From Candidatus Latescibacterota bacterium (GTDB lineage: Bacteria > Latescibacterota > UBA2968 > UBA8231): 64,000 nucleotides of DNA. The stretch spans positions 1,408,001-1,472,000 of the forward strand of contig OZ253462.1 in NCBI GenBank assembly GCA_965261395.1. Reading direction: 5' to 3'. Made by a program: the position numbers and the translations under genes. The notes beneath the pieces are model-generated. The model was not told the origin of the DNA. It searched no databases and saw only the letters and a program-made list of their open reading frames with translations. This document shows positions 3,890 through 44,092 of the stretch, piece after piece. Each line of letters starts with the position of its first letter. Position 1 is the stretch's first letter.

Positions 3890-4669
3890 ATGCTGATAAT
3901 CGACACGCACTGCCACGCCGGTAACAACTGGTTTGAGCCCATCGAGACACTCGAATTCGAGATGGACCGCAACGGCGTTGACCAGGCCGTCCTCATCCAA
4001 CACGGCGGCACATACGACAACACCTACCTCCTCCAAGAAGCAGCCAAGCGACCGGGCCGGTTCAAAGTTGCGGTCCTCGTCGATCCCGGGTCCCGCGATC
4101 CACTCGGCGATCTTGCGCGGCTCGCAGCGCAAGGGGCCGCCGGTGTGCGCATTGCGCCGGGTGGCCAGTTCGCCAACGCTGGTCCTTACGACATGTGGCG
4201 CAGAGCCGGCGAACTTAGCCTCGTAGTCTCAAGCATCGGCAATGCATCCCAGTTCGCTGCCGACGGCTTCTCTCGCGTACTCGATGCCTGCCCCGACACG
4301 CACGTCATCCTCGAACACCTCGCAGGAGTGGGCATTGCCGAGCCGCCCTACGCCGACTACGTTGAGGCCCTGCAACAGGGCGAGCGCGACAACACCAGCA
4401 TCAAAGTCCCCGGCTTGGGCGAAATCTGCACCCGCCCGCCGCGCCTGCTGCCCGAGCTCGAATTCGACCATGTACCGCCATTTTTCGAGATGGCCAAGGA
4501 CGCGTTCGGCGTGCAACGCATGATGTGGGGCAGTGACTTCCCGCCCAGCGCTGGCAGAGAGGGCTACGCCAATGCGCTGCGCGGTGTCCTCAAGCATCCG
4601 GCCTTTGCCGACGGCGATGATATCGAGTGGGTCATGGGCAAGACCGCGGCGCGCGTGTGGGGATTCTAA
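3890..4669 (+). CDS. Amidohydrolase_2 family protein
   Basis: IIDTHCH metal motif, ILEHL and RMMWGSDFP. Confidence 0.9.
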   Translation: MLIIDTHCHAGNNWFEPIETLEFEMDRNGVDQAVLIQHGGTYDNTYLLQEAAKRPGRFKVAVLVDPGSRDPLGDLARLAAQGAAGVRIAPGGQFANAGPYDMWRRAGELSLVVSSIGNASQFAADGFSRVLDACPDTHVILEHLAGVGIAEPPYADYVEALQQGERDNTSIKVPGLGEICTRPPRLLPELEFDHVPPFFEMAKDAFGVQRMMWGSDFPPSAGREGYANALRGVLKHPAFADGDDIEWVMGKTAARVWGF

Positions 4670-4723
4670 GAATTGGGATACTGCGAGAAAATCTAACTTC
4701 CTTGTGGAAAATAACAGAGCGAA

Positions 4724-5347
4724 ATGGCCAAAGAAAAAAAGAAAACTACGCGCCAAGCGTATGGCATCACATTACTCAAAGCTGCTGACCCCCGGGTGCT
4801 AGCCCACAAAAAGAAGCACGAACCCTGCATCCACGGCGACAAATTCTGGAATTCGAGTTGGTGCGTGATGGACTTCCTCTCGCACCAGGGCCTGCTACCA
4901 AAGGCGCAGGTTTTGGATATCGGCTGCGGTTGGGGCCTCGCCGGGATATACTGCGCCAAAAACCACGGTGCCTGCGTCACGGCGATGGACGCGGATGCGG
5001 CGGTCTTTCCCTACTTGCAGCTACACGCCGAGATCAACGAAGTCGAGATAGAGACCTGGTGCTGCAAGTTTGAGAAAGTAAAAAGGAAAGACCTGCGACA
5101 AACCAACCTGATCATCGGGGCCGATATTTGCTTCTGGGACGAGATGGTCGAGCCGCTCTACAAGCTGATCAAAAAGGCGATCGGGGTCGGGGTCGGGCAG
5201 ATCATCATCGCCGACCCGGGCCGACCGCCCTTTCACTCGCTGAGCGAGCAGGTCATAGAGAAGCTCGGCGGCGAGCTCAAAGAATGGGAAATCGACGGCG
5301 AGGTCAAAGCCGACGCGTACCTGCTCATCGCGGGCACGCTGCCCTAG
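4724..5347 (+). CDS. Class I SAM-dependent methyltransferase (lysine/nicotinamide methyltransferase-like)
   Basis: VLDIGCGWGLAG motif I, IIGADICF and IIADPGR. Confidence 0.85.
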   Translation: MAKEKKKTTRQAYGITLLKAADPRVLAHKKKHEPCIHGDKFWNSSWCVMDFLSHQGLLPKAQVLDIGCGWGLAGIYCAKNHGACVTAMDADAAVFPYLQLHAEINEVEIETWCCKFEKVKRKDLRQTNLIIGADICFWDEMVEPLYKLIKKAIGVGVGQIIIADPGRPPFHSLSEQVIEKLGGELKEWEIDGEVKADAYLLIAGTLP

Positions 5348-34108: not shown

Positions 34109-34657
34109 TCAACTAGGGAAAAGACAGTCCACGGACAGCGTCCATCCCGGAACCGCCGGCTCGGCCGCTGCCGACTCGCCCCGCCGATATGCGATCGGCT
34201 CATCGGGATTTATCGCCTTGTAGCTTCGCACCACATCTTCACTCATCAAGTCCACATCCCAAACGACCAACGTCCCAGCGGCGAAATAGTCCGCCCGTTT
34301 TTGCGCCATCTCCTGCTCGGCCGTCGGACCATAATCGCTCTCGCTGCGGACCTCGACGGCGAAGACGGGTGCCCCTTTGAGAAACTTCATCGTCAGCTCA
34401 CCCGTATAGAATGCCGCGTCCGGGCTGAACGACTTACGTTCGGGAAGATCGACGATAAAGCCGACATTATCCGCGAAGGCGTACCCGGTGCGGGTGCGCT
34501 GCGCGTAGTCCCGCAAGCTGGCGAAAATCTCGCCCGCCGCATACCCCGGCAACCCTCCTGTCGGCGACATAAGTACTAATTCCCCTTTGATCAGTTCGGC
34601 CTTGCCATTTTCTTCTACGTGGCGCAGGTCATCCAGAGTAGCTGCAACATTTGTCAT
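34109..34657 (-). CDS. Uma2 family endonuclease
   Basis: ELIKGEL..MSP, SPDAAF, AVEVRS and KRADYFAAGT.VVWDVD. Confidence 0.9.
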   Translation of the reverse strand: MTNVAATLDDLRHVEENGKAELIKGELVLMSPTGGLPGYAAGEIFASLRDYAQRTRTGYAFADNVGFIVDLPERKSFSPDAAFYTGELTMKFLKGAPVFAVEVRSESDYGPTAEQEMAQKRADYFAAGTLVVWDVDLMSEDVVRSYKAINPDEPIAYRRGESAAAEPAVPGWTLSVDCLFPS

Positions 34658-34851: not shown

Positions 34852-36040
34852 CTACCAGCGTGTGGTGATCCGGCCCAATACGCGCTGGTCCTCGTCCCCT
34901 TGGCGCAGGGACTCGCGTCGCGTCGCATCGACCCCCAGTGCGAAGTACACGGCGTCGTCGTGCAACAGGGTTAGCTGATAGCCCAGCCGGTAGTCCCGCG
35001 CCATCCCGGAAGTACCGATGCCGAGCCTCGGCGTGCCGACCAGCCGGCTGCCGACCGGCAGCCCGTAGCCGAAATCGGCATTGAAGCGGCTGCCCGGGGC
35101 GGATCCTCCGGCGGCCAGCCCCGCCATGGTCTCGCGGCTCCACAGCGCCTCGGCTCCGCTCGTAGCCCGTCCGCCCCAGGAGGGTGTCACCTGCGCCTTG
35201 AAGCCCAGCGGCGTCCTCGGCGTCGGGTCCAAGCTGAGTCGCACGGACCCACCCCGTTCCCCGAATCCTTCCGCTTGGTGCACCAGCAGCATCCGGATCT
35301 GCACATCGGCCGACAGACCGGTCAACGGATCTTTGACGATCAGGCCGCCGCCGAGGTCCACGCCCGCGCCCGTCTCGGCGTCGCCGCCGTCGCGCCGCAG
35401 CCCGACCTCCAGGCTCGGCTGCAGCGACAACCCGCGCCCGAAGTCGTAGCCGCGCGAGGCCTCCAGCGCCGTGCGGAAGCGGGTCACCGCGGCTTCGGTT
35501 GCCGCCAGTTGGCCCGACAGACCCTCGATGCCCACCACGCCCTCGATGCCGGTATCCACCCACAGCGCATCCGCCTTGACCGCCAGCCCGAAGCCCCCCT
35601 TCACCAAAGCAGCCAGATCGCCTCGCAAGCCGGCTGCGGCCATCGCCATGGAAAGCCCGCTTTTGAGCGCCGCGCCCTTGCCCGGCGTCAGGCTCAGCGT
35701 CCCCTTGCCGTATCCGGTTACGCCCCAGAGTGTGACGCGCTCGGTGGCCTTGTAGCCGACCCAGGGGTAGAGGCCGGTCACTGACGAGACCACTTCGCCG
35801 AGGTCCACCCCCGAGTAGTTGCCTTGGCTACTGCTGTGGAACAGCGGCAGGCCCATCACCAGCGACCCCTTGGCGTAGTCGGCTCCCAACATGGTCGTGC
35901 GGACCCGACCGCTGAGAGACAGCACGCCCTCCCGGCCGGCGAACCGCGACTGCGCCCCCCGGCCCCACAACGAGAAGGCACCGCCCTGGCGCGTCGCTTG
36001 GTTCAACTCGAAGGCCGAGCCGGTCAGCACGTCGCCCCTT
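34852..36040 (-). pseudogene. Headless autotransporter-type beta-barrel domain (no signal peptide, no passenger)
   Basis: SLWGRGAQSRF, TTMLGADY, LYPWVGY, LQPSLEVGLRRDGGDAETG, amphipathic strands and C-terminal Trp; the frame opens (RGDVLTGSAF) 2 nt after the upstream stop, with no evident leader. Confidence 0.8.
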
Positions 36041-36042
36041 TT

Positions 36043-36343
36043 CTATTTTATGAGCAACAGCCGCCGCACCCGTACCCCCTGCGTGCTGGTGAGCCGAGAC
36101 AGATACACCCCGCTGGCCAAGCCCGCCCCGGTGTCGTTGCGGCCATCCCAGACAATCTGGTAGCGCCCCGCCGCCTGCACGCCTTGGACTAAGGTGCGCA
36201 CCCGCTGTCCCCGGACATTGTAGATGGCCAATTCCACTGCACCAGCCACCGGCAGCGCGTAGGTCATCTGCGTTTCGGCATTGAATGGATTGGGATAGTT
36301 GGCGTATAGAGCGAACGTCTGGAGCGCAACCACCGATTTGGCC
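36043..36343 (-). repeat. 301-bp C-terminal tail cassette, copy A
   Basis: Ungapped match to 38661-38961 with about 15 mismatches by manual count; homology starts at the Ala-Lys codons and ends at the TAG. Confidence 0.92.
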
Positions 36344-37872
36344 AACTCGGTGTTCCTGATGGTCCCAGTCGCCTCCGCTCTCGTGATGGAGAGCGTCTGG
36401 GACGCGTCATTGCACAGCCGTGCATTGCTGATCTTGACCTTCACGGTCTCGCCGTTGTCGTTCACCGAGTCGTCGATGATGCGGACGAGGGGCTTGTCCA
36501 CCCGTTTTCCGATCTGCATCCAGTACGTGGCTTTCGGGAACTTGAGGTAGTCCGTTCCTTCCTCGGCGGTGCCGCCCGAGATGGTCTCAAAGTCGTAACA
36601 CACATAGTCGTCATGCTTCCGCGAGAGCCTGACATTGAAAACGAGCCACCCGCTGTCCTCGTCCCCGGTCGCGTCTTTGATCCGAATGGTCAGACCCGGC
36701 ACGTTGGTCGTGGTGGTCGTCGGCGCGTTGATCGTTCCCGTCGCCTCGGCGGTCGTGATGTCGAGGTCCTTTATTTTGTTGCCGTAGGCATCGACCACGC
36801 GCGCGTTGCTGAGCCTTACCTTCACCGTCTCCCCGGCGGCGGCGACTGTGTCCTCAATGAGCGCGAAGCCCATCTGCGCGGTCTTGTCTCCCGCCAGAAT
36901 GACGTGGGTGTAGGTGCGGCGAGCATGGTAGTCGACGCCTTCGGTGGCGGTGCCTCCCGAAATAGTCTCGAAGTCGACCTTCACCGTGTTCTGGAAGGAT
37001 CGCGAGAGCGTGACCTCGAACAGGAGGTGGCCGGCGTTCTCGGCGGCGCTGGCGTCCGCGATCGAGATGGCGGGCGGGATAGTTCCCCTGACTGCGATCT
37101 TGAGCTTGCCGGCAAGGTTATCCCAGGTTGTAGCAGTCGTAGACCGCTGCCGCGAACTGTTGGTGATGTTCCATCCGCTCGCCTTCCCCGAATCTTCGGA
37201 ATTACTGGTCGTGACCTCCAAGTCGTATCGAAGGTTACTGCCTGATCCCAGCGCCTCGAACACCACGAAGTAATTGGTGTCCTTTTCGAGGGTCGCATTG
37301 GCCGGCGCCCTGAAGCTGTTGATCGCGTCGTCGTTAAGCGTCGCCGGATTGGTCAGCACGTACAGGCTGCTGCCGGGATTGCCGGATGAGGTCGTGTAGA
37401 TGCTCACCTTTGGCCGAGAATTCGACCCGAAATCATCTACCCGGACTTGAATTGCCGAGAGCGTATAGCCACCCTCATTGTCGCCGGTCCTGAACTGCTG
37501 TGCTTGAAGTTGCCAGAGATGTCCGTGGGGACCGACTTCCCGGACATCGGGATCGGTGCTCTGACCGGTGTTGGAGACGAAGGTGGTCTTCTGGGCCTCG
37601 GCCTGAAGCGGCAGGGTCAGGAGCGCGGCGAACGCCACGAAGAACGCGGCCGCTGCGTGGCAGGCCACAGAACCTGCGCGCGACACCGATGCCGCCGCCG
37701 ATGTGCGGGACGCGCGATGGTTGGACGCGGAAGAGGACCCGCCCGGAGAGGGCGGGGAGGATTCAGGGGGCCGGCGAGGGCCTGGCGGGGACCCGTCATA
37801 CCCTGGACCAGAGTTAGATGTGGCTCTGGTCCCTTGGATACGGATCAGGAACGTCGCAACTAGCTTCTTCAT
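36043..37872 (-). CDS. Secreted adhesin-like protein: long signal peptide, N-terminal beta domain, two Calx-beta domains, FlgD-like C-terminal tail
   Basis: AEA/Q cleavage site after an extended leader; ISIADASAAE...VDFET..GTATEGVDY Calx-beta motif twice; NYPNPFN...WDGRN..G..LASGVY tail. Confidence 0.85.
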   Translation of the reverse strand: MKKLVATFLIRIQGTRATSNSGPGYDGSPPGPRRPPESSPPSPGGSSSASNHRASRTSAAASVSRAGSVACHAAAAFFVAFAALLTLPLQAEAQKTTFVSNTGQSTDPDVREVGPHGHLWQLQAQQFRTGDNEGGYTLSAIQVRVDDFGSNSRPKVSIYTTSSGNPGSSLYVLTNPATLNDDAINSFRAPANATLEKDTNYFVVFEALGSGSNLRYDLEVTTSNSEDSGKASGWNITNSSRQRSTTATTWDNLAGKLKIAVRGTIPPAISIADASAAENAGHLLFEVTLSRSFQNTVKVDFETISGGTATEGVDYHARRTYTHVILAGDKTAQMGFALIEDTVAAAGETVKVRLSNARVVDAYGNKIKDLDITTAEATGTINAPTTTTTNVPGLTIRIKDATGDEDSGWLVFNVRLSRKHDDYVCYDFETISGGTAEEGTDYLKFPKATYWMQIGKRVDKPLVRIIDDSVNDNGETVKVKISNARLCNDASQTLSITRAEATGTIRNTELAKSVVALQTFALYANYPNPFNAETQMTYALPVAGAVELAIYNVRGQRVRTLVQGVQAAGRYQIVWDGRNDTGAGLASGVYLSRLTSTQGVRVRRLLLIK

Positions 37873-37911
37873 GGATGGTGTCTCCTTTTCCCTAGTATGG
37901 TTTCTCGTTGA

Positions 37912-37948
37912 AGCACCCGAGACCCGCCCTGGGGAGGTCTCGGGTGCT
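37912..37948. other. Perfect 13-bp-stem hairpin between island genes
   Basis: AGCACCCGAGACC-N11-GGTCTCGGGTGCT, 12 bp from the end of the inverted duplication. Confidence 0.6.
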
Positions 37949-37960
37949 CAGGGTGTCTAC

Positions 37961-38262
37961 ACAGCCTAGCCATCAGCGAGATGTTGAACTGCGCGGGAGC
38001 CGCTGGTAAGCAGGCCCCCGCAGCTTGGCGTGAGTCATATTATTCATTGGCAGACAGACAATCCCAGTTGATCGAGGTCATTGTTCAATATCGTGTCCAG
38101 ACTGGGCGGGATACACCCACTTAACTGATTGCCGGACAGAAGCAGGAGGTAAAGGTTGGTCAGTTGGCCTAACGCAGAGGGTATCGAGCCGGTTAACTCG
38201 TTGTCGAACAGACCCAAGCTTTCCAGGTTGGTCAGTTGGCCTAACGCAGAGGGTATCGAGCC
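37961..38262 (-). repeat. 302-bp inverted duplication, copy 1 (LRR gene 3' end plus downstream hairpin)
   Basis: Exact reverse complement of 43249-43550 by manual comparison. Confidence 0.93.
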
Positions 38263-38638
38263 TAAATGTCAAGACTCCGTTCTTGGTAAAAAATTTAGTG
38301 ACCGCGTAGGTCGTACCGTCATCGGTGAAGTCGTCGCTCAACGTGTTCGAGTTGCTGCATTTTCTATTCCCCGTCGAGCTGTTGTCACAGCCCAACGGTA
38401 CGGGGGTCCCTGAGAATGTGGTCCTCGGCGTCAGCGTGGCCGTCCAGATTGTGGTCTGGGCTTGCGCGGGGAGGGCCGCGGCAAACAGCATGGCGAAGGC
38501 CACGAGGAATGTGGCTGCTAGGGTGTGCAGCGCGCGGGACTCTGGCGGATTTACGCTCGGTCCATATACGACACGTACGTCGTCACGCATCTCCTTAACC
38601 AATCCAGTTTCGGCATACCTCACGTGCGAATAAGTCAT
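38078..38638 (-). pseudogene. Secreted protein 5' part, truncated by out-of-frame fusion to the duplicated LRR segment
   Basis: Signal peptide ...AAALPAQA/QTTIWTATLT, native sequence to ~38263, then the LRR DNA read in the wrong frame (RLDTLCVRPTDQP). Confidence 0.8.
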
Positions 38639-38660
38639 AAGAACTCCTCTCTTGAATTTG

Positions 38661-38961
38661 CTATTTTATTAACAACAACTGCCGCACCCGTACCCCCTGC
38701 GTGCTGGCGAGCCGAGATAGATACACCCCGCTGGCCAGCGCCGCCCCGGTGTCGTTGCGGCCATCCCAGACGATCTGGGAGCGCCCCGCCGCCTGCACGC
38801 CTTGGACTAAGGTGCGCACCCGCTGTCCCCGGACATTGTAGATGGCCAATTCCACTGCACCAGCCACCGGCAGCGCGTAGGTCATCTGCGTTTCGGCATT
38901 GAATGGATTGGGATAGTTGGCGTATAGAGCGAACGCCTGCAGCGCAGCCACCGGTTTGGCC
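38661..38961 (-). repeat. 301-bp C-terminal tail cassette, copy B
   Basis: About 95% identical to 36043-36343, with a fully identical central ~155 bp. Confidence 0.92.
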
Positions 38962-41324
38962 GCCGGGCCAGTCACCGTCGCCGACAGCCCATTCGACAAG
39001 GCGCGACCATCCTGGGTGCAGACCGCGCCATTGGTGTTGCACGAAGTGGTCGGTAGCAAGGAGATACCCACGTCGTTGGCGTCCGGCTGGATCGCAATTT
39101 CCCACCGATCGCTGCGACCGTCCACCCGCCGCGCACTGGTCACCCTGCCGCCGGTCACCGTCAACGCTTGGGTGCGCATCACCGCTTCAGTTAGCCAAAT
39201 CGGTTCGTTGAACGCGAGTTGCACTGCAAACGCAGTGGAGCCGTCGTGTCCTGTGGGCAAGCTCTCGAAACGCACTGTCAGCGGTGCTCGGTACACGACG
39301 GAGGCAGCCACGCCCTGCGACAGCATCCGTCCGTCCGCGGTGCAGATTGCGTTGTCGGCATCGCACGAGGGGGTCGGTGGCAAGGCGATACGCACGTCAT
39401 TGGGGTTCGGTTGGATCGTAGTTTCCCACCGATCGCTGCGACCGTTCACCCGGCGTGCGCTAGTCACCGCGCCACCAATCACCGCTAGGGCCTGCTGTAT
39501 CTCCGCCGCTTTGGTCCTCTCAATCGGTTCGCTGAACACGAGTTGCACCGCGAATTCAGTGGTGCCGTTGTGTCCTGCGGGCAAATTCTCAAAGCGCGCC
39601 ATCAACGGCTCCACTTCAGGCTGCGCGTCTTCTCCTGTTTGCGTCGCCAAAGGGATGACGACCTGCGCGTCGTTTTGGAGAACCAAGCCGTCCTGGGTGC
39701 AGACCGCGCCATTGGCGTTGCACGAGGTGGTCGGTAGCAAGGAGATACGCACGTCATTGGCGTTCGGCTGGATTATAATTTTCCACAGATCGCTGCGACC
39801 CTTTACGCGCCGCGTGCCAGTCACCCTGCCACCGGTCACCGTCAGCGCCGTGCGCAGTGCCGGTGCGGTTAGCCAGATCGGTTCGCTAAATACAAGTTGC
39901 AATGCGAACGCAGTGGTGCCGTCGTGCCCTGTGGGCAAGCTCTCGAAGCGCACCCTCAGCGGCGCTCTGGGCACGGAGACGGCCACGCCCTGCGACAGCA
40001 TCCGTCCGTCCGCGGTGCAGATTGCGTTGTCGGCATCGCACGAGGGGGTCGCTAGCAGAGACATGCTCACGTCGGCGTTGCTGTGCGGTATGGCTTTGAT
40101 CTCCCACCGATCGCTGCGACCATCCACCTGACGCACGCTGGTCACCGTACCGTGGGTCACCATCAGCATCTGCCGTATCGCCGCTTCGGTCGTCTCAATC
40201 GGTTCGCTGAACGCAAGTTGCACCGCGAACGCGGTGGAGCCGTCGTGTCCTGCGGGCAAGCTCTCGAAGCGCACCCTCAGCGGCGCTCTGGGAACGGAGA
40301 CAGTCACGCCCCGCGACAAGGTCCGTCCATCTGCGGTGCAGACTGCGCCGGCGACGCACGAGGTGGTTGATGGCAGAGATATGTTCACGTCGGCGTTGCT
40401 GTTGGGCGTCACTGTGATCTCCCACAGTTTGCGGCGACCATCCACCTGGCGCGCGCTGGTCACCGTACCGCCGGTCATCATCAGCGCCTGCTGTATCGCC
40501 TCTTGGGTCGTCCTAATTGGTTCGTTGAACGCAAGTTGCAGGGTGAACGCAGTGGAGCCGTCGTGTTCTTCGGGCACGTCCCTGAAGCGCGCTTTCAGCA
40601 GTACGATCTTCGGCTTAGGCCTCGCCGCCGCCTGAGCCGACGACGCCGGCGTCGCCGACGCCTGAGCCGACGCTGGTGCTGGGCATATTTGTGCCGACGA
40701 CGAGGTTGTCGGCGGGCATGTTTGCTCCGTGGTCCGCAGGCAAACCCCGGCCGTGCCACCCAAGGGAAGCGTGGTCGCAAAGCAGTCGGTATTCAGCGAG
40801 GGAGCGTTATCGTTTAGCCACGATTGGTCCCAGAGGAATTGCGCATAATACTTCTGGGCATCTGCGAACGGGAATTCCTCGCCGGCGAACTCCAAGACCA
40901 GCCCCTCAACGCTTTCCACCAACAGTTCTGCCAGAATAATTTGCACAACCCTGGGGTCCCCGCTCATAAGCTGTACGCGGTTATCGGTGTCGGAATAACT
41001 GAATTCATTGTTATCGATCGATCCCACATCGTGATCGAAGGTGATAGCTGCTTCGGCGTATCCTCGATAGTCCTGTCCATTGGTCGGCTCGCCAATGGTT
41101 ATTGTGGCGGACAAAATAGGATCGGTCGTCTGCGCTTGGGCGGCTGTGGCGAACAGGGCGACGAACGCCAACAGCAACCCAGCCGCTAGGCTGGAACGAG
41201 AGAGATTGGAAGGATAATCGGTTGCGTCCGATAGATGGGACGCGGGGAAGGAAGATTTAGGCGGCCGTAGTCTTGGCTCTTGGTTCTTAAATAGCGTACA
41301 GACAAGCAGTCTTCTACACCGCAT
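38661..41324 (-). CDS. Secreted adhesin-like protein with five Ig-like 'HDG' repeats and a FlgD-like C-terminal tail
   Basis: GGAGG RBS before the ATG at 41324; AQA/Q cleavage site; five ~100-aa repeats (RFESLP.GHDG.TAF..QL.FSEPI...W.I...SC....A.CT.DGR.L); NYPNPFN tail. Confidence 0.85.
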   Translation of the reverse strand: MRCRRLLVCTLFKNQEPRLRPPKSSFPASHLSDATDYPSNLSRSSLAAGLLLAFVALFATAAQAQTTDPILSATITIGEPTNGQDYRGYAEAAITFDHDVGSIDNNEFSYSDTDNRVQLMSGDPRVVQIILAELLVESVEGLVLEFAGEEFPFADAQKYYAQFLWDQSWLNDNAPSLNTDCFATTLPLGGTAGVCLRTTEQTCPPTTSSSAQICPAPASAQASATPASSAQAAARPKPKIVLLKARFRDVPEEHDGSTAFTLQLAFNEPIRTTQEAIQQALMMTGGTVTSARQVDGRRKLWEITVTPNSNADVNISLPSTTSCVAGAVCTADGRTLSRGVTVSVPRAPLRVRFESLPAGHDGSTAFAVQLAFSEPIETTEAAIRQMLMVTHGTVTSVRQVDGRSDRWEIKAIPHSNADVSMSLLATPSCDADNAICTADGRMLSQGVAVSVPRAPLRVRFESLPTGHDGTTAFALQLVFSEPIWLTAPALRTALTVTGGRVTGTRRVKGRSDLWKIIIQPNANDVRISLLPTTSCNANGAVCTQDGLVLQNDAQVVIPLATQTGEDAQPEVEPLMARFENLPAGHNGTTEFAVQLVFSEPIERTKAAEIQQALAVIGGAVTSARRVNGRSDRWETTIQPNPNDVRIALPPTPSCDADNAICTADGRMLSQGVAASVVYRAPLTVRFESLPTGHDGSTAFAVQLAFNEPIWLTEAVMRTQALTVTGGRVTSARRVDGRSDRWEIAIQPDANDVGISLLPTTSCNTNGAVCTQDGRALSNGLSATVTGPAAKPVAALQAFALYANYPNPFNAETQMTYALPVAGAVELAIYNVRGQRVRTLVQGVQAAGRSQIVWDGRNDTGAALASGVYLSRLASTQGVRVRQLLLIK

Positions 41325-41630
41325 ATAAGGTAATGCCTCCTCTGTGTGAAGGGTGAATCGGCCCCTATAAAGCGGGGCCCGGGCCATATCCACCTCACGC
41401 AGAGTATGCGGAGTATTCCTGTCTATTCGCCAAGCGATGGGAAGGGGAGCGACCCCTCCACCACTAAGCATTCTGGCTGTGTACAACAAGGGAACCGAGG
41501 AACCGACATGCGAGTTCCCTACGCAAGATGGATAAGAACAAAATAGGTGATTTTTGCAGAAAGTAAATACAGGCGATTGTGTATTAGAGCTGATTGCAAA
41601 TTAGAGTATTTTAAAACTGTTTTATTGGAG

Positions 41631-42000: not shown

Positions 42001-43467
42001 TTGAAAAAGACTGTCTTTACCGTAAGTATCCTGCCTGAATCTCTAAACCGAGGCGATTTCAAGACAAAAATTTTACTGCTTTTAGTAGCATTCATGGGAT
42101 TTTCTTGTACAGATTATGAAAATCCGCTAGCGCTCATTAGCCCGCCCGCCGGAAAGGCTCAGGTGGGTTCGGACTCTGGCGAATGCCTTGCCATATCTTG
42201 GCCTTGCGATACGGAAGTAGATTCCGTGTGGACTGTATTCTACGGATCAGACTATCGGTTCCAAGCCCACGGCGACAGCGTCCTGTTTTCGCATTATCTA
42301 GATAGCAATAGTAAGACGCAATACTGGGCATCAGAAACCTCGACCCATCTTGGGAGAGTCCGGTCGGGTTTCCGCCCGGGTGACGGAGCGTGTGGCATCT
42401 GGAGCGAGGCTATCGACCATGATTCCTCGGTGGTGCGTATTTATCGGGGGGATGTAAACTACTTGTATAGAGATACGCCGAATGCCAGATATACTCTGTT
42501 AGAAGGCGATATGCAGTATCCCATCGCCTCTGTGGCAGCAGAAGGGTCGGTGCGCCACCGCAATTTTCTTAGTGTGCACAATCGCAATGAGCCGCGACCG
42601 GCCGATCTTGTAGAAATAAGCAGCACGTATTATGCAAGTGCCTACTACCTGCCGGTTAATTTTAGTGCTGCGGCGCTCGATACGCTTACCGCCCTGCCCG
42701 AGGACGACCGGCCTTATTTGGATGATTCCATTTTGGATGATTCCATTTGTTCAGGTGATGTTCGAGATTCTACACCTCAACCTCAATCCGGGTCGGTGGG
42801 TATTTCCCAACAACCTGAGCAGTCCCAACAACCTGAGCAGTCCCAACAACCTGAGCAGTCCCAACAACCTGAGCAGTCCCAACAACCTGAGCAGTCCCAA
42901 CAACCTGAGGAGCCCCAACAACCTGAGCAGTCCCAACAACCTGAGCAGTCCCAACAACCTGAGCAGTCCCAACAACCTGAGGAGCCCCAACAACCTGAGG
43001 AGCCCCAACAACCTGAGGAGCCCCAACAACCTGAGGAGCCCCAACAACCTGAGGAGCCCCAACAACCTGAGGAGCCCCAACAAACTGATCGTCCTGCACT
43101 GATGGCCTTCTATGCAGCTACGGGCGGAGGTAGTAATTGGACGGGCCACAATTGGGGAAGCGATGAACCTATCGGCACATGGGAGGGCGTAACCACCAAT
43201 GCCGGGGGACGCGTTATTGGTCTGGACCTGCACGGCAACAATTTAACCGGCTCGATACCCTCTGCGTTAGGCCAACTGACCAACCTGGAAAGCTTGGGTC
43301 TGTTCGACAACGAGTTAACCGGCTCGATACCCTCTGCGTTAGGCCAACTGACCAACCTTTACCTCCTGCTTCTGTCCGGCAATCAGTTAAGTGGGTGTAT
43401 CCCGCCCAGTCTGGACACGATATTGAACAATGACCTCGATCAACTGGGATTGTCTGTCTGCCAATGA
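42001..43467 (+). CDS. Lipoprotein with a QQPE(QS/EP) linker and a plant-type LRR domain
   Basis: GFSC lipobox, PAGK motif, LRR N-cap DRPALMAFY..TGG..W and 24-aa LTGSIPSALGQLTNL repeats. Confidence 0.85.
   Translation: MKKTVFTVSILPESLNRGDFKTKILLLLVAFMGFSCTDYENPLALISPPAGKAQVGSDSGECLAISWPCDTEVDSVWTVFYGSDYRFQAHGDSVLFSHYLDSNSKTQYWASETSTHLGRVRSGFRPGDGACGIWSEAIDHDSSVVRIYRGDVNYLYRDTPNARYTLLEGDMQYPIASVAAEGSVRHRNFLSVHNRNEPRPADLVEISSTYYASAYYLPVNFSAAALDTLTALPEDDRPYLDDSILDDSICSGDVRDSTPQPQSGSVGISQQPEQSQQPEQSQQPEQSQQPEQSQQPEQSQQPEEPQQPEQSQQPEQSQQPEQSQQPEEPQQPEEPQQPEEPQQPEEPQQPEEPQQPEEPQQTDRPALMAFYAATGGGSNWTGHNWGSDEPIGTWEGVTTNAGGRVIGLDLHGNNLTGSIPSALGQLTNLESLGLFDNELTGSIPSALGQLTNLYLLLLSGNQLSGCIPPSLDTILNNDLDQLGLSVCQ
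42805..43083 (+). repeat. Coding VNTR: 15 copies of an 18-bp unit plus a partial copy
   Basis: Two unit variants, CAACAACCTGAGCAGTCC (8 copies) and CAACAACCTGAGGAGCCC (7 copies). Confidence 0.95.
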
Positions 43468-43550
43468 ATAATATGACTCACGCCAAGCTGCGGGGGCCTG
43501 CTTACCAGCGGCTCCCGCGCAGTTCAACATCTCGCTGATGGCTAGGCTGT
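43249..43550 (+). repeat. 302-bp inverted duplication, copy 2 (source copy, in frame with the LRR gene)
   Basis: Exact reverse complement of 37961-38262. Confidence 0.93.
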
Positions 43551-44092
43551 ATGGTGGGCATACCTAAGTTTAGCCAAAAAGGAGTCCCTCACCTTATCCC
43601 GAACTCACGTTAAAATAGAAAATTAGTTAAAGTTAAATGGCTACCCCAGGAGATCGACCATGCCCCGCAAAAACAATCGTCGCCCCAGCCTAGACAAACG
43701 GCAACAGCGAGGCGCTCGCCGCCAGGGCCTTCAACCCGCCGAGGCCCCCGCCCCCGCGTCAGCGGAGAGAAGCGCATTCCTTTGGCGAGGGTTCCCCGTG
43801 CTGGCTACTGGAAGGGCACGACCAGGGCAACGGATCGGCACGGCGTGAACACTATTAGCCCCCCGCGTCCTGGGCCTTGACCGCGGCAAATCGCCAGTTT
43901 CGACCGGCCCCCTTGGGACGCAGGCGTTTGGATGGGGCGGGTGGAGGCGAGGAGGCCATAGCGACCAAATATAGTCCGGTGGAGGCGTGAGAAAAGGCTC
44001 CCGCCGCCGCGCCTTGACTATATGCCTAAAGCCCCTTTACGTACTGATTATAACTGAACGCAGAACTCATTAACTACTACGAGGAGAAGACC

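Follow-up and report, generated by a model that had tools for sequence, protein, structure and literature searches.

An adhesin gene of a sponge-associated Latescibacterota bacterium that has probably exchanged an autotransporter-type barrel for a type IX secretion tail

Introduction

InvL of Acinetobacter baumannii is an adhesin of the intimin/invasin family that lacks a barrel and is exported through type II secretion (T2SS), according to the available part of its description (PMC9245377). For polymorphic toxin systems the modular exchange of trafficking domains has been reported, again in the part of the source at hand (PMC9424270). The present study concerns a stretch of 64,000 nucleotides (the window) from a Candidatus Latescibacterota bacterium (contig OZ253462.1, positions 1,408,001 to 1,472,000). 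In it two genes for surface proteins, geneA and geneB, end in the same sorting domain for type IX secretion (T9SS), and geneA is followed directly by an open reading frame (ORF) for an outer-membrane barrel, the orphan barrel. The reading preferred here, to which a probability of about 0.8 is given, is that the interior of a resident adhesin gene would have been replaced and its export moved from the barrel to the T9SS tail by recombinational module exchange.

Metagenome-assembled genomes of Latescibacterota from sponges have been described, in the text available, to encode eukaryotic-like repeat proteins including leucine-rich repeat (LRR) proteins; the terms Calx, secretion system, autotransporter and T9SS were absent from the main text of that source in a term search (PMC12993501). 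Full-text literature searches returned no description of a switch from type V to type IX export.

Results

Two genes with unrelated bodies end in the same T9SS sorting domain

All genes of the locus lie on the minus strand. The product of geneA (36043..37872; 609 aa) consists of a long N-terminal extension with a hydrophobic leader, a choice-of-anchor-R domain (99.1 bits), two Calx-beta domains (the Calx pair) and a T9SS sorting domain. The gene geneB (38661..41489; 942 aa as listed, from a TTG start that may lie too far upstream) encodes a repeat-rich surface protein that has about six repeats of about 100 aa each and the T9SS sorting domain at its end. Both proteins show a hydrophobic stretch ahead of an Ala-x-Ala, which is taken as the putative leader.

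The 3' ends of the two genes, tail copy A (36043..36343, minus strand) and tail copy B (38661..38961, minus strand), which encode the sorting domain and the stop, align without gaps over 301 bp. The alignment contains exactly 15 mismatches, which cluster at both ends, and the longest run without a mismatch measures 156 bp (36162-36317). The limits are the GCC AAA (Ala-Lys) codons at one side and the TAG at the other. Identical limits were found for a third copy in the genome (78% identical), which forms the 3' end of an open frame of 4737 aa, and for a copy in locus L052 from another genome of Candidatus Latescibacterota; all four DNA copies stop at the TAG. The original prediction, made from the letters of the window, had pointed to such an ungapped segment of 301 bp with about 15 mismatches and an identical core, bounded by the Ala-Lys codons and the TAG and joined to two unrelated bodies. 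Each of these observations was borne out; the bodies of geneA (choice-of-anchor-R and Calx pair) and geneB (repeats) are indeed unrelated.

Both tails score above the cut-off of TIGR04183 (NCBIfam, T9SS type A sorting domain; cut-off 23), with 33.6 bits for geneA and 28.8 bits for geneB, and of PF13860 (Pfam FlgD_ig; cut-off 27), with 50.3 and 47.4 bits, respectively. Both are below the cut-off of 27 of PF18962 (21.0 and 16.9 bits). The matches finish 3-11 residues short of the stop, which places the domain of about 80 aa at the extreme C-terminus.

The segment had also been regarded as a portable cassette, and this part of the prediction was not upheld. The genome of 6.55 Mb contains 3 full-length copies of the tail (100, 95 and 78% identity), 7 other matches being partial (66-79%). 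The ends of the tail coincide with a domain start and a stop codon. No features of a mobile element were seen, and neither a transposase nor an integrase was found among the ORFs of at least 150 aa between 34000 and 50000. A mobile cassette, be it an insertion sequence (IS), a miniature inverted-repeat transposable element or of the integron type, was therefore rejected. A degenerate 21-letter pattern taken from the tail end detected 12 loci in genome contigs and 15 in metagenome contigs; only L052 is related, the others being chance matches from other phyla.

Intact relatives have passenger and barrel in one polypeptide

The orphan barrel (34852..36041, minus strand) comprises 392 codons from the GTG at 36030 (34852-36030) and 396 codons when counted from the stop. 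It has neither a leader nor a linker helix, which agrees with the lack of a signal peptide noticed originally, and its terminal residue is Trp. An AAGGGG stretch is found ahead of the GTG. The barrel had been thought to begin two nucleotides after the stop; it is in the frame of geneA, which opens again right after the TAG (36045-36043), with the GTG 12 nt later.

When longer proteins were searched, 1996 of the 8000 candidates scored matched at E ≤ 0.001. All 120 longer homologues among the matches listed carry passenger and barrel in one polypeptide, as a check suggested with the prediction had anticipated. The ten best are 737-1813 aa long and have barrels that are 96-98% identical to the orphan. 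The protein clusters P0001, P0002 and P0007 show the layout leader, passenger, Calx pair, linker of about 105 aa and orphan-type barrel. Their match with the window starts at four codons, Arg-Gly-Asp-Val, which precede and include the GTG; copy A and its stop stand where these intact relatives have the linker. Of the 396 positions of the orphan, 7 differ from P0001 and P0002; compared with 10 intact barrels, it has no private residues apart from the junction codon. The existence of intact passenger-linker-barrel genes with such similar barrels endorses the earlier idea that the barrel is a leftover.

Three paralogues of the orphan are present in its own genome, where each terminates an open frame (858, 3661 or 2543 aa), so that the family occupies four genomic places. 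The nearest (47% identical to the orphan) belongs to a gene of 842 aa that encodes a leader, a choice-of-anchor-R-like domain, Calx-beta, a linker of about 85 aa and the barrel. This gene is colinear with geneA plus the orphan and is the closest relative of both within the genome, its passenger matching that of geneA at 33-35%. The only relatives of the geneA passenger in the genome are this 842-aa gene and the 3661-aa gene, both of which end in a barrel.

A second, independent orphan barrel was observed in a class-level relative (L034, G040:C5:2967566-2971480). There geneB-like repeats, Calx-beta and linker are interrupted by transposase-like sequence and the barrel is left as a separate ORF of 390 aa; repeats of the geneB type do occur together with barrels. 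Directly downstream of the orphan barrel in the window lies a gene for a putative endonuclease of the Uma2 family (34109-34657, minus strand; 83.5 bits).

The start of the resident gene lies 2.2 kb from the barrel

Between geneB and geneA the window contains the 5' part of a resident autotransporter-type gene (38253..38638, minus strand), consisting of the start, the leader and the first 129 codons. The ATG of this stub is 22 nt after the TAG of geneB. A listed ORF of 186 aa (38078-38638) begins as the stub and continues out of frame into a copy of the tail of an LRR gene. In tblastn residues 1-129 of P0002 matched the stub (38638-38252) at 98.4%, P0005 at 96.1% and P0007 at 94.6%; a second match of P0002 was found between its residues 520-1258 and 37074-34855. 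P0001, P0002 and P0007 begin as the stub and end as the orphan barrel. This indicates that the start and the barrel of the resident gene are both present, 2.2 kb apart.

The stub runs into an inverted duplicate of the end of an LRR gene (37961..38262, minus strand), which is identical at 302 of 302 bp to 43249-43550. The copy takes in the final 209 bp of that gene together with 83 bp of its downstream flank (100% match with G000:C1:1451259-1451550 of the own genome). The intact LRR gene and its 83-bp flank (42001..43550, plus strand; gene 42001-43467) are located 5 kb from the copy in inverted orientation and represent the source or a twin of the duplicated tail.

At the left junction 10 nt (38253-38262, GGCTCGATAC) are common to the LRR gene and the intact autotransporter allele, which constitutes a microhomology. 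At the right junction (36041..36042, minus strand) the intact allele reads CAA (Gln) and the window AAA (36042-36040), with the resident barrel running from 36041 downward. Homology to the intact relatives resumes one base past the TAG. The flank of copy B begins with CAAA, and the microhomology at this side amounts to at most 3-4 nt. Because the junctions have only 10 nt and at most 3-4 nt in common with their partners, illegitimate or homology-anchored recombination is indicated, not transposition.

Support from public sequencing runs was sought in assembled Logan contigs of four runs, the depth of which was not used as copy number. Contigs of runs X13, X1 and X2 pass from the stub over position 38253 into the next codons of the intact passenger, and record 19 of X2 covers 35687-36041 and then continues with the codons of the intact linker's end. 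Both break points are supported in this way. Loose contig ends in X13 and X2 at position 37961 match the native sequence downstream at 43551.

Judged by these identities, the event is very recent: the LRR copy is unchanged over 302 of 302 bp, the stub is 98.4% identical to P0002 and the orphan is without private residues bar the junction codon. Such recency accounts for the barrel ORF still being open.

Several further features of this region were observed. The 302-bp inverted repeats flank a 5-kb segment with the stub, geneB and the larger part of the LRR gene, which could be flipped by homologous recombination, and a third copy of the repeat (99% identical) is present at G000:C1:801926-802171. 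The LRR protein (42001-43467) has about 20 hexapeptide repeats of the Gln-Pro-Glu-Gln/Glu-Ser/Pro-Gln type ahead of its LRR part, and weaker LRR-like matches cluster at G000:C1:2143549-2148688. Within the 88 bp immediately 5' of geneA (37873..37960, minus strand) the ATG is preceded by an AAGGAG ribosome-binding site, and a perfect hairpin of 11-12 bp (about 37912-37948) lies between the LRR-tail copy and this site and is not followed by a T-run.

The barrel family is autotransporter-like

Structure prediction of the orphan alone with AlphaFold2 gave an all-beta barrel of about 18 strands, with a mean predicted local distance difference test score (pLDDT) of 73.6 and a predicted template modelling score (pTM) of 0.71. 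With this model Foldseek returned generic outer-membrane barrels only (TM <0.4), and VIA-align placed CdiB (Z 16.3) and FhaC (Z 16.1) above autotransporter barrels (Z 12.4-12.9). The linker and barrel of L021, the closest intact relative for which DNA is available (64% identical), were modelled as well (mean pLDDT 60.4). This model has a confident helix of 27 residues followed by the barrel. It aligned with AIDA-I at Z 25.1 (264 residues, root-mean-square deviation 2.5 Å), with NalP at Z 25.1, with Hbp at Z 24.4, with EstA at Z 23.4 and further with AaaA, BrkA and EspP (Z 20.6). The top 7 rows were all autotransporters, and the eighth row followed at Z 17.2. About 70 residues of low confidence lie between the helix and the first strand, and about 110 residues with extra strands are found beyond the portion that aligns to 12-strand barrels.

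The autotransporter profile PF03797 (cut-off 26) matched two paralogues within the genome, namely L012, which shares 47% identity with the orphan, with 44.3 bits and L014 with 43.1 bits. At E ≤ 10 it matched 5 of the 16 family members scanned, L021 not being among those matched. In a sequence search of the PDB with a profile of the barrel the best E-value was 0.042. On the strength of the relatives' PF03797 matches and of the structural model, the barrel family, and with it the orphan, is taken to be autotransporter-like, though divergent. It would be a large family that is mostly missed by current Pfam and NCBIfam models.

The linker helix begins with a near-invariant Leu/Trp-x-x-Arg-Phe-Gly-Arg-Thr in all barrel-ended relatives of a 16-member alignment; no Pfam model covers this motif.

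A foreign origin of the locus is not supported

The autotransporter genes had originally been supposed to be imported. The barrel family was found in 30 of the 41 genomes searched, which included the own genome and relatives, and in four places of the own genome. Within the genus 18 of 24 genomes have it, and within a second family of the class 10 of 12. The GC content of the locus (0.60-0.65) falls inside the range of the window (0.50-0.65). On account of the base composition, the in-genome paralogues and the distribution over genomes, a foreign origin was dropped.

The genome, which is one contig of 6.55 Mb, has 95 matches to T9SS tails, of which 92 exceed the cut-off. It encodes PorU (618 bits, cut-off 420) and SprA (595 bits, cut-off 200), and next to PorU there is a PorV-like gene that reaches 150 bits, under the cut-off of 250. 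Based on these tail matches and components the T9SS tails are considered to be native.

Relatives of geneA carry different export modules

A block-wise identity map of geneA revealed sharp switches between relatives. For residues 80-280 the identity to P0124 is 100%. The Calx pair agrees with P0123 at 92-100% and with P0002 at only 75-90%, and for the tail P0123, P0197 and P0202 all give 100%; in the same map the orphan barrel matches P0001 and P0002 at 95-100%. P0124 (1008 aa) combines the geneA passenger with linker and barrel. P0122, P0123, P0197 and P0202 have a tail of the copy A/B family on four passenger variants, the tail of P0122 being of the copy-B type, and P0121 is a 100% cluster of tail-ended geneA that occurs on 2 contigs. 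In P0134 (78% identical overall) the geneA passenger has a different T9SS tail at the same position, the tail stretch being visibly much less similar. L052 consists of a P0007-type passenger and the shared tail, with no barrel downstream. The 120 closest relatives of geneA comprise 58 that end in a barrel, 6 that end in a T9SS tail and 56 that are unclassified. The own genome has no partner of the Calx pair above 41% identity; more than 100 clusters in other assemblies are 76-97% identical to it.

The distribution of tail identities bears on the direction of transfer. On geneB-type proteins the identity to copy A declines gradually (92-98%, 75-79%, 70-74%, about 65%), and on the Calx-pair passenger family it is only 95-100%. 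Distant tails of about 65% identity were found on the Calx-beta proteins P0256 and P0269. Relatives of the last 303 residues of geneB make up 17 clusters (P0231-P0247), which are 82-100% identical to this part and all contain PF13860; one of them, P0236, is the protein of the window itself. Since gradual divergence is confined to geneB-type proteins, the tail would have diverged together with the geneB family and reached the Calx-pair genes recently, and the geneB lineage is the most likely donor. The identical core with diverged ends, together with A-type and B-type tails on geneA across assemblies, suggests that the tail may still be homogenised between neighbours by gene conversion.

The Pro/Ser-rich extension of about 70 aa ahead of the hydrophobic leader of geneA (residues 1-70, 37660-37872) is conserved in P0122, P0123, P0124, P0197 and P0202. 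It may be compared with the extended signal-peptide regions of some autotransporters. In L052 an IS-type (DDE) transposase gene (4330-5172, minus strand) was observed downstream of the tail-ended adhesin gene, at a distance of about 300 bp.

Discussion

A proposed history of the locus

Comparison with the intact relatives suggests the following course. The ancestral locus would have consisted of geneB with its T9SS tail and, 22 nt later, one autotransporter-type adhesin gene with leader, passenger, Calx pair, helical linker of about 105 aa and C-terminal outer-membrane barrel. The tail may first have been acquired from the geneB lineage, and export modules would be exchanged by recombination among co-resident relatives across the population. 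Everything in the resident gene between codon 130 and the linker's end would then have been swapped for about 2.2 kb made up of the tail copy of the nearby LRR gene and a complete geneA with its own ribosome-binding site, leader, tail and TAG. The source of this insert may have been a co-resident relative, or it may have arisen by local template switching; in either case it would have been recombined into the locus with hardly any or no homology at its ends. The product of geneA is predicted to cross the inner membrane by Sec and then to use the T9SS (SprA translocon, PorU sortase) instead of a barrel of its own, and the barrel ORF and the stub of 129 codons are presumably inert remnants.

The clean graft of 301 bp that had been envisaged at this locus is hereby replaced by the exchange of a 2.2-kb interior, containing a complete tail-bearing gene and the LRR tail, which stranded the 129 codons. 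The original prediction that the adhesin was re-addressed by a grafted export tail survives in so far as it rests on the orphan barrel and the grafted T9SS tail; the foreign origin and the portable cassette that went with it do not.

Two simpler routes were considered. Inversion between the 302-bp inverted repeats leaves the junction of stub and LRR copy in place and is insufficient alone. Tandem duplication followed by deletion between two CAAA sites fits the right junction, but not the LRR copy, and needs a base change at 36042. A tandem duplication in which the end of the Calx pair was joined to the geneB tail, followed by deletion, is a possible first step only.

Weighing the alternatives

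A number of observations weigh against the replacement proposed here. The tail-barrel junction was not bridged with at least 31 letters on both sides by any contig piece among the matches listed; its evidence is the single-contig assembly alone, and among 31 genomes of the genus it is found complete in one, namely the own genome. At position 36042 the window has A where the intact allele and the flank of copy B have C, which makes the microhomology at the right uncertain. The sequence of events is a reconstruction, as is the donor DNA of the 2.2-kb insert, and a second copy of geneA was not found in the own genome. The downstream context of other tail-ended genes was seen for L052 only. No Pfam (E ≤ 0.01) or NCBIfam model matched the orphan ORF itself. 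Finally, a T9SS motor protein was looked for with the GldM profile, which had no match in the genome, nor in the control genomes.

The missing bridge would be expected if strains with near-identical tails had been misjoined during assembly, the orphan and the stub then occurring in no single cell. The metagenome is rich in strains, many contigs differing at the 90-99% level over the stretch, and the 156-bp core common to both tails offers a place for such an error. The junctions are, however, outside this core, at places where the overlap between the parents amounts to only 10 nt and at most 4 nt, which is too short for assemblers to join on. In addition, the genome is a single contig of 6.55 Mb, tail-ended geneA occurs in other assemblies (P0122, P0123, and P0121 on 2 contigs), and stub, LRR copy, geneA and barrel lie colinearly in one orientation. 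A chimera is consequently regarded as very unlikely. The presence of tail-ended relatives in several assemblies, among them L052 without a barrel, and the Calx-beta proteins P0256 and P0269 with their distant tails might suggest that tail-ended Calx-pair adhesins are the old state and barrel-ended ones derived, the barrel in the window then being a separate downstream gene deleted at its 5' end. The absent 5' part of the barrel gene is found upstream of geneA, though, and not downstream. Barrel-ended forms (58) outnumber tail-ended ones (6) among the 120 closest relatives, 56 of which are unclassified, all relatives of the passenger within the genome end in a barrel, and tails in the passenger family are confined to 95-100% identity against the gradual divergence on geneB-type proteins. 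This polarity is accordingly judged improbable.

Whether the arrangement might be functional as it stands is a further question. The barrel is in the frame of geneA with only the TAG and four codons between them, AAGGGG precedes the GTG and the ORF is fully open and undecayed; read-through of the TAG or re-initiation at the GTG could then yield a barrel that works with the tail-bearing adhesin. A common frame arises by chance in one out of three cases, however, and a re-initiated product would have neither a signal peptide nor the conserved linker helix. The undecayed state is equally explained by recency, the LRR copy being identical over its entire length, and recoding of TAG is not indicated, as an internal TAG occurs in only 1 of the 95 tail-bearing frames. 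This possibility is considered extremely remote. Replacement of the interior of a resident autotransporter-type gene by a T9SS-tailed one remains the preferred explanation.

A doubtful extension of it is that the stub and the undecayed barrel serve as silent cassettes and the Calx pair as an anchor of homology, by which sponge symbionts could reassort passengers and toggle between type V and T9SS forms. If true, this would be surface variation tuned to a host that discriminates between microbes.

Significance and comparison with known systems

Secretion signals are usually regarded as fixed properties of a protein family, whereas the geneA-type passenger is found with three export modules, one type V barrel and two T9SS tails. 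The switch appears to be so recent that the discarded barrel, the start of the gene, the probable donor lineage geneB and both junctions are still readable. The locus is a natural experiment on whether the T9SS can handle a passenger built for autotransport, and it offers a view of strain-level diversification of surface proteins in uncultured sponge symbionts.

The intact relatives resemble type Va autotransporters such as AIDA-I, NalP, Hbp, EstA and EspP in having leader, passenger, helix and C-terminal barrel in one polypeptide, in the PF03797 scores above cut-off of two paralogues and in the fit of a relative's helix-plus-barrel model (Z 20.6-25.1). They differ from them in the roughly 70 low-confidence residues from helix to strand and in some 110 extra residues with additional strands, and neither for the window ORF nor for its closest relatives is there a direct match to a Pfam model. 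The window's copy, moreover, lacks leader, passenger and helix and is parted from geneA by the TAG and four codons. The tails are like T9SS type A sorting domains in their C-terminal position, their length of about 80 aa, their scores over the TIGR04183 and PF13860 cut-offs and the presence of SprA and PorU in the genome. Unlike those, they fall below the cut-off of PF18962, and the host belongs to the sponge-associated Latescibacterota instead of the Bacteroidota.

As described in the available part of its report, InvL likewise represents a type V family passenger without a barrel and depends on another secretion system; there the family's barrel is N-terminal (type Ve), the substitute route is that of a lipoprotein and the T2SS, and neither a remnant barrel nor a near-identical barrel-bearing allele or donor gene is described in that part (PMC9245377). 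In polymorphic toxins, so far as the accessible text goes, one cargo family is joined by recombination to domains for different secretion systems, as appears to be the case here; the cargo of the present locus is an adhesin-like Calx-beta protein and the exchange concerns the systems of types V and IX (PMC9424270). The proposed exchange of type V for type IX export would be a new form of a known process, module exchange, in an unusually fresh state.

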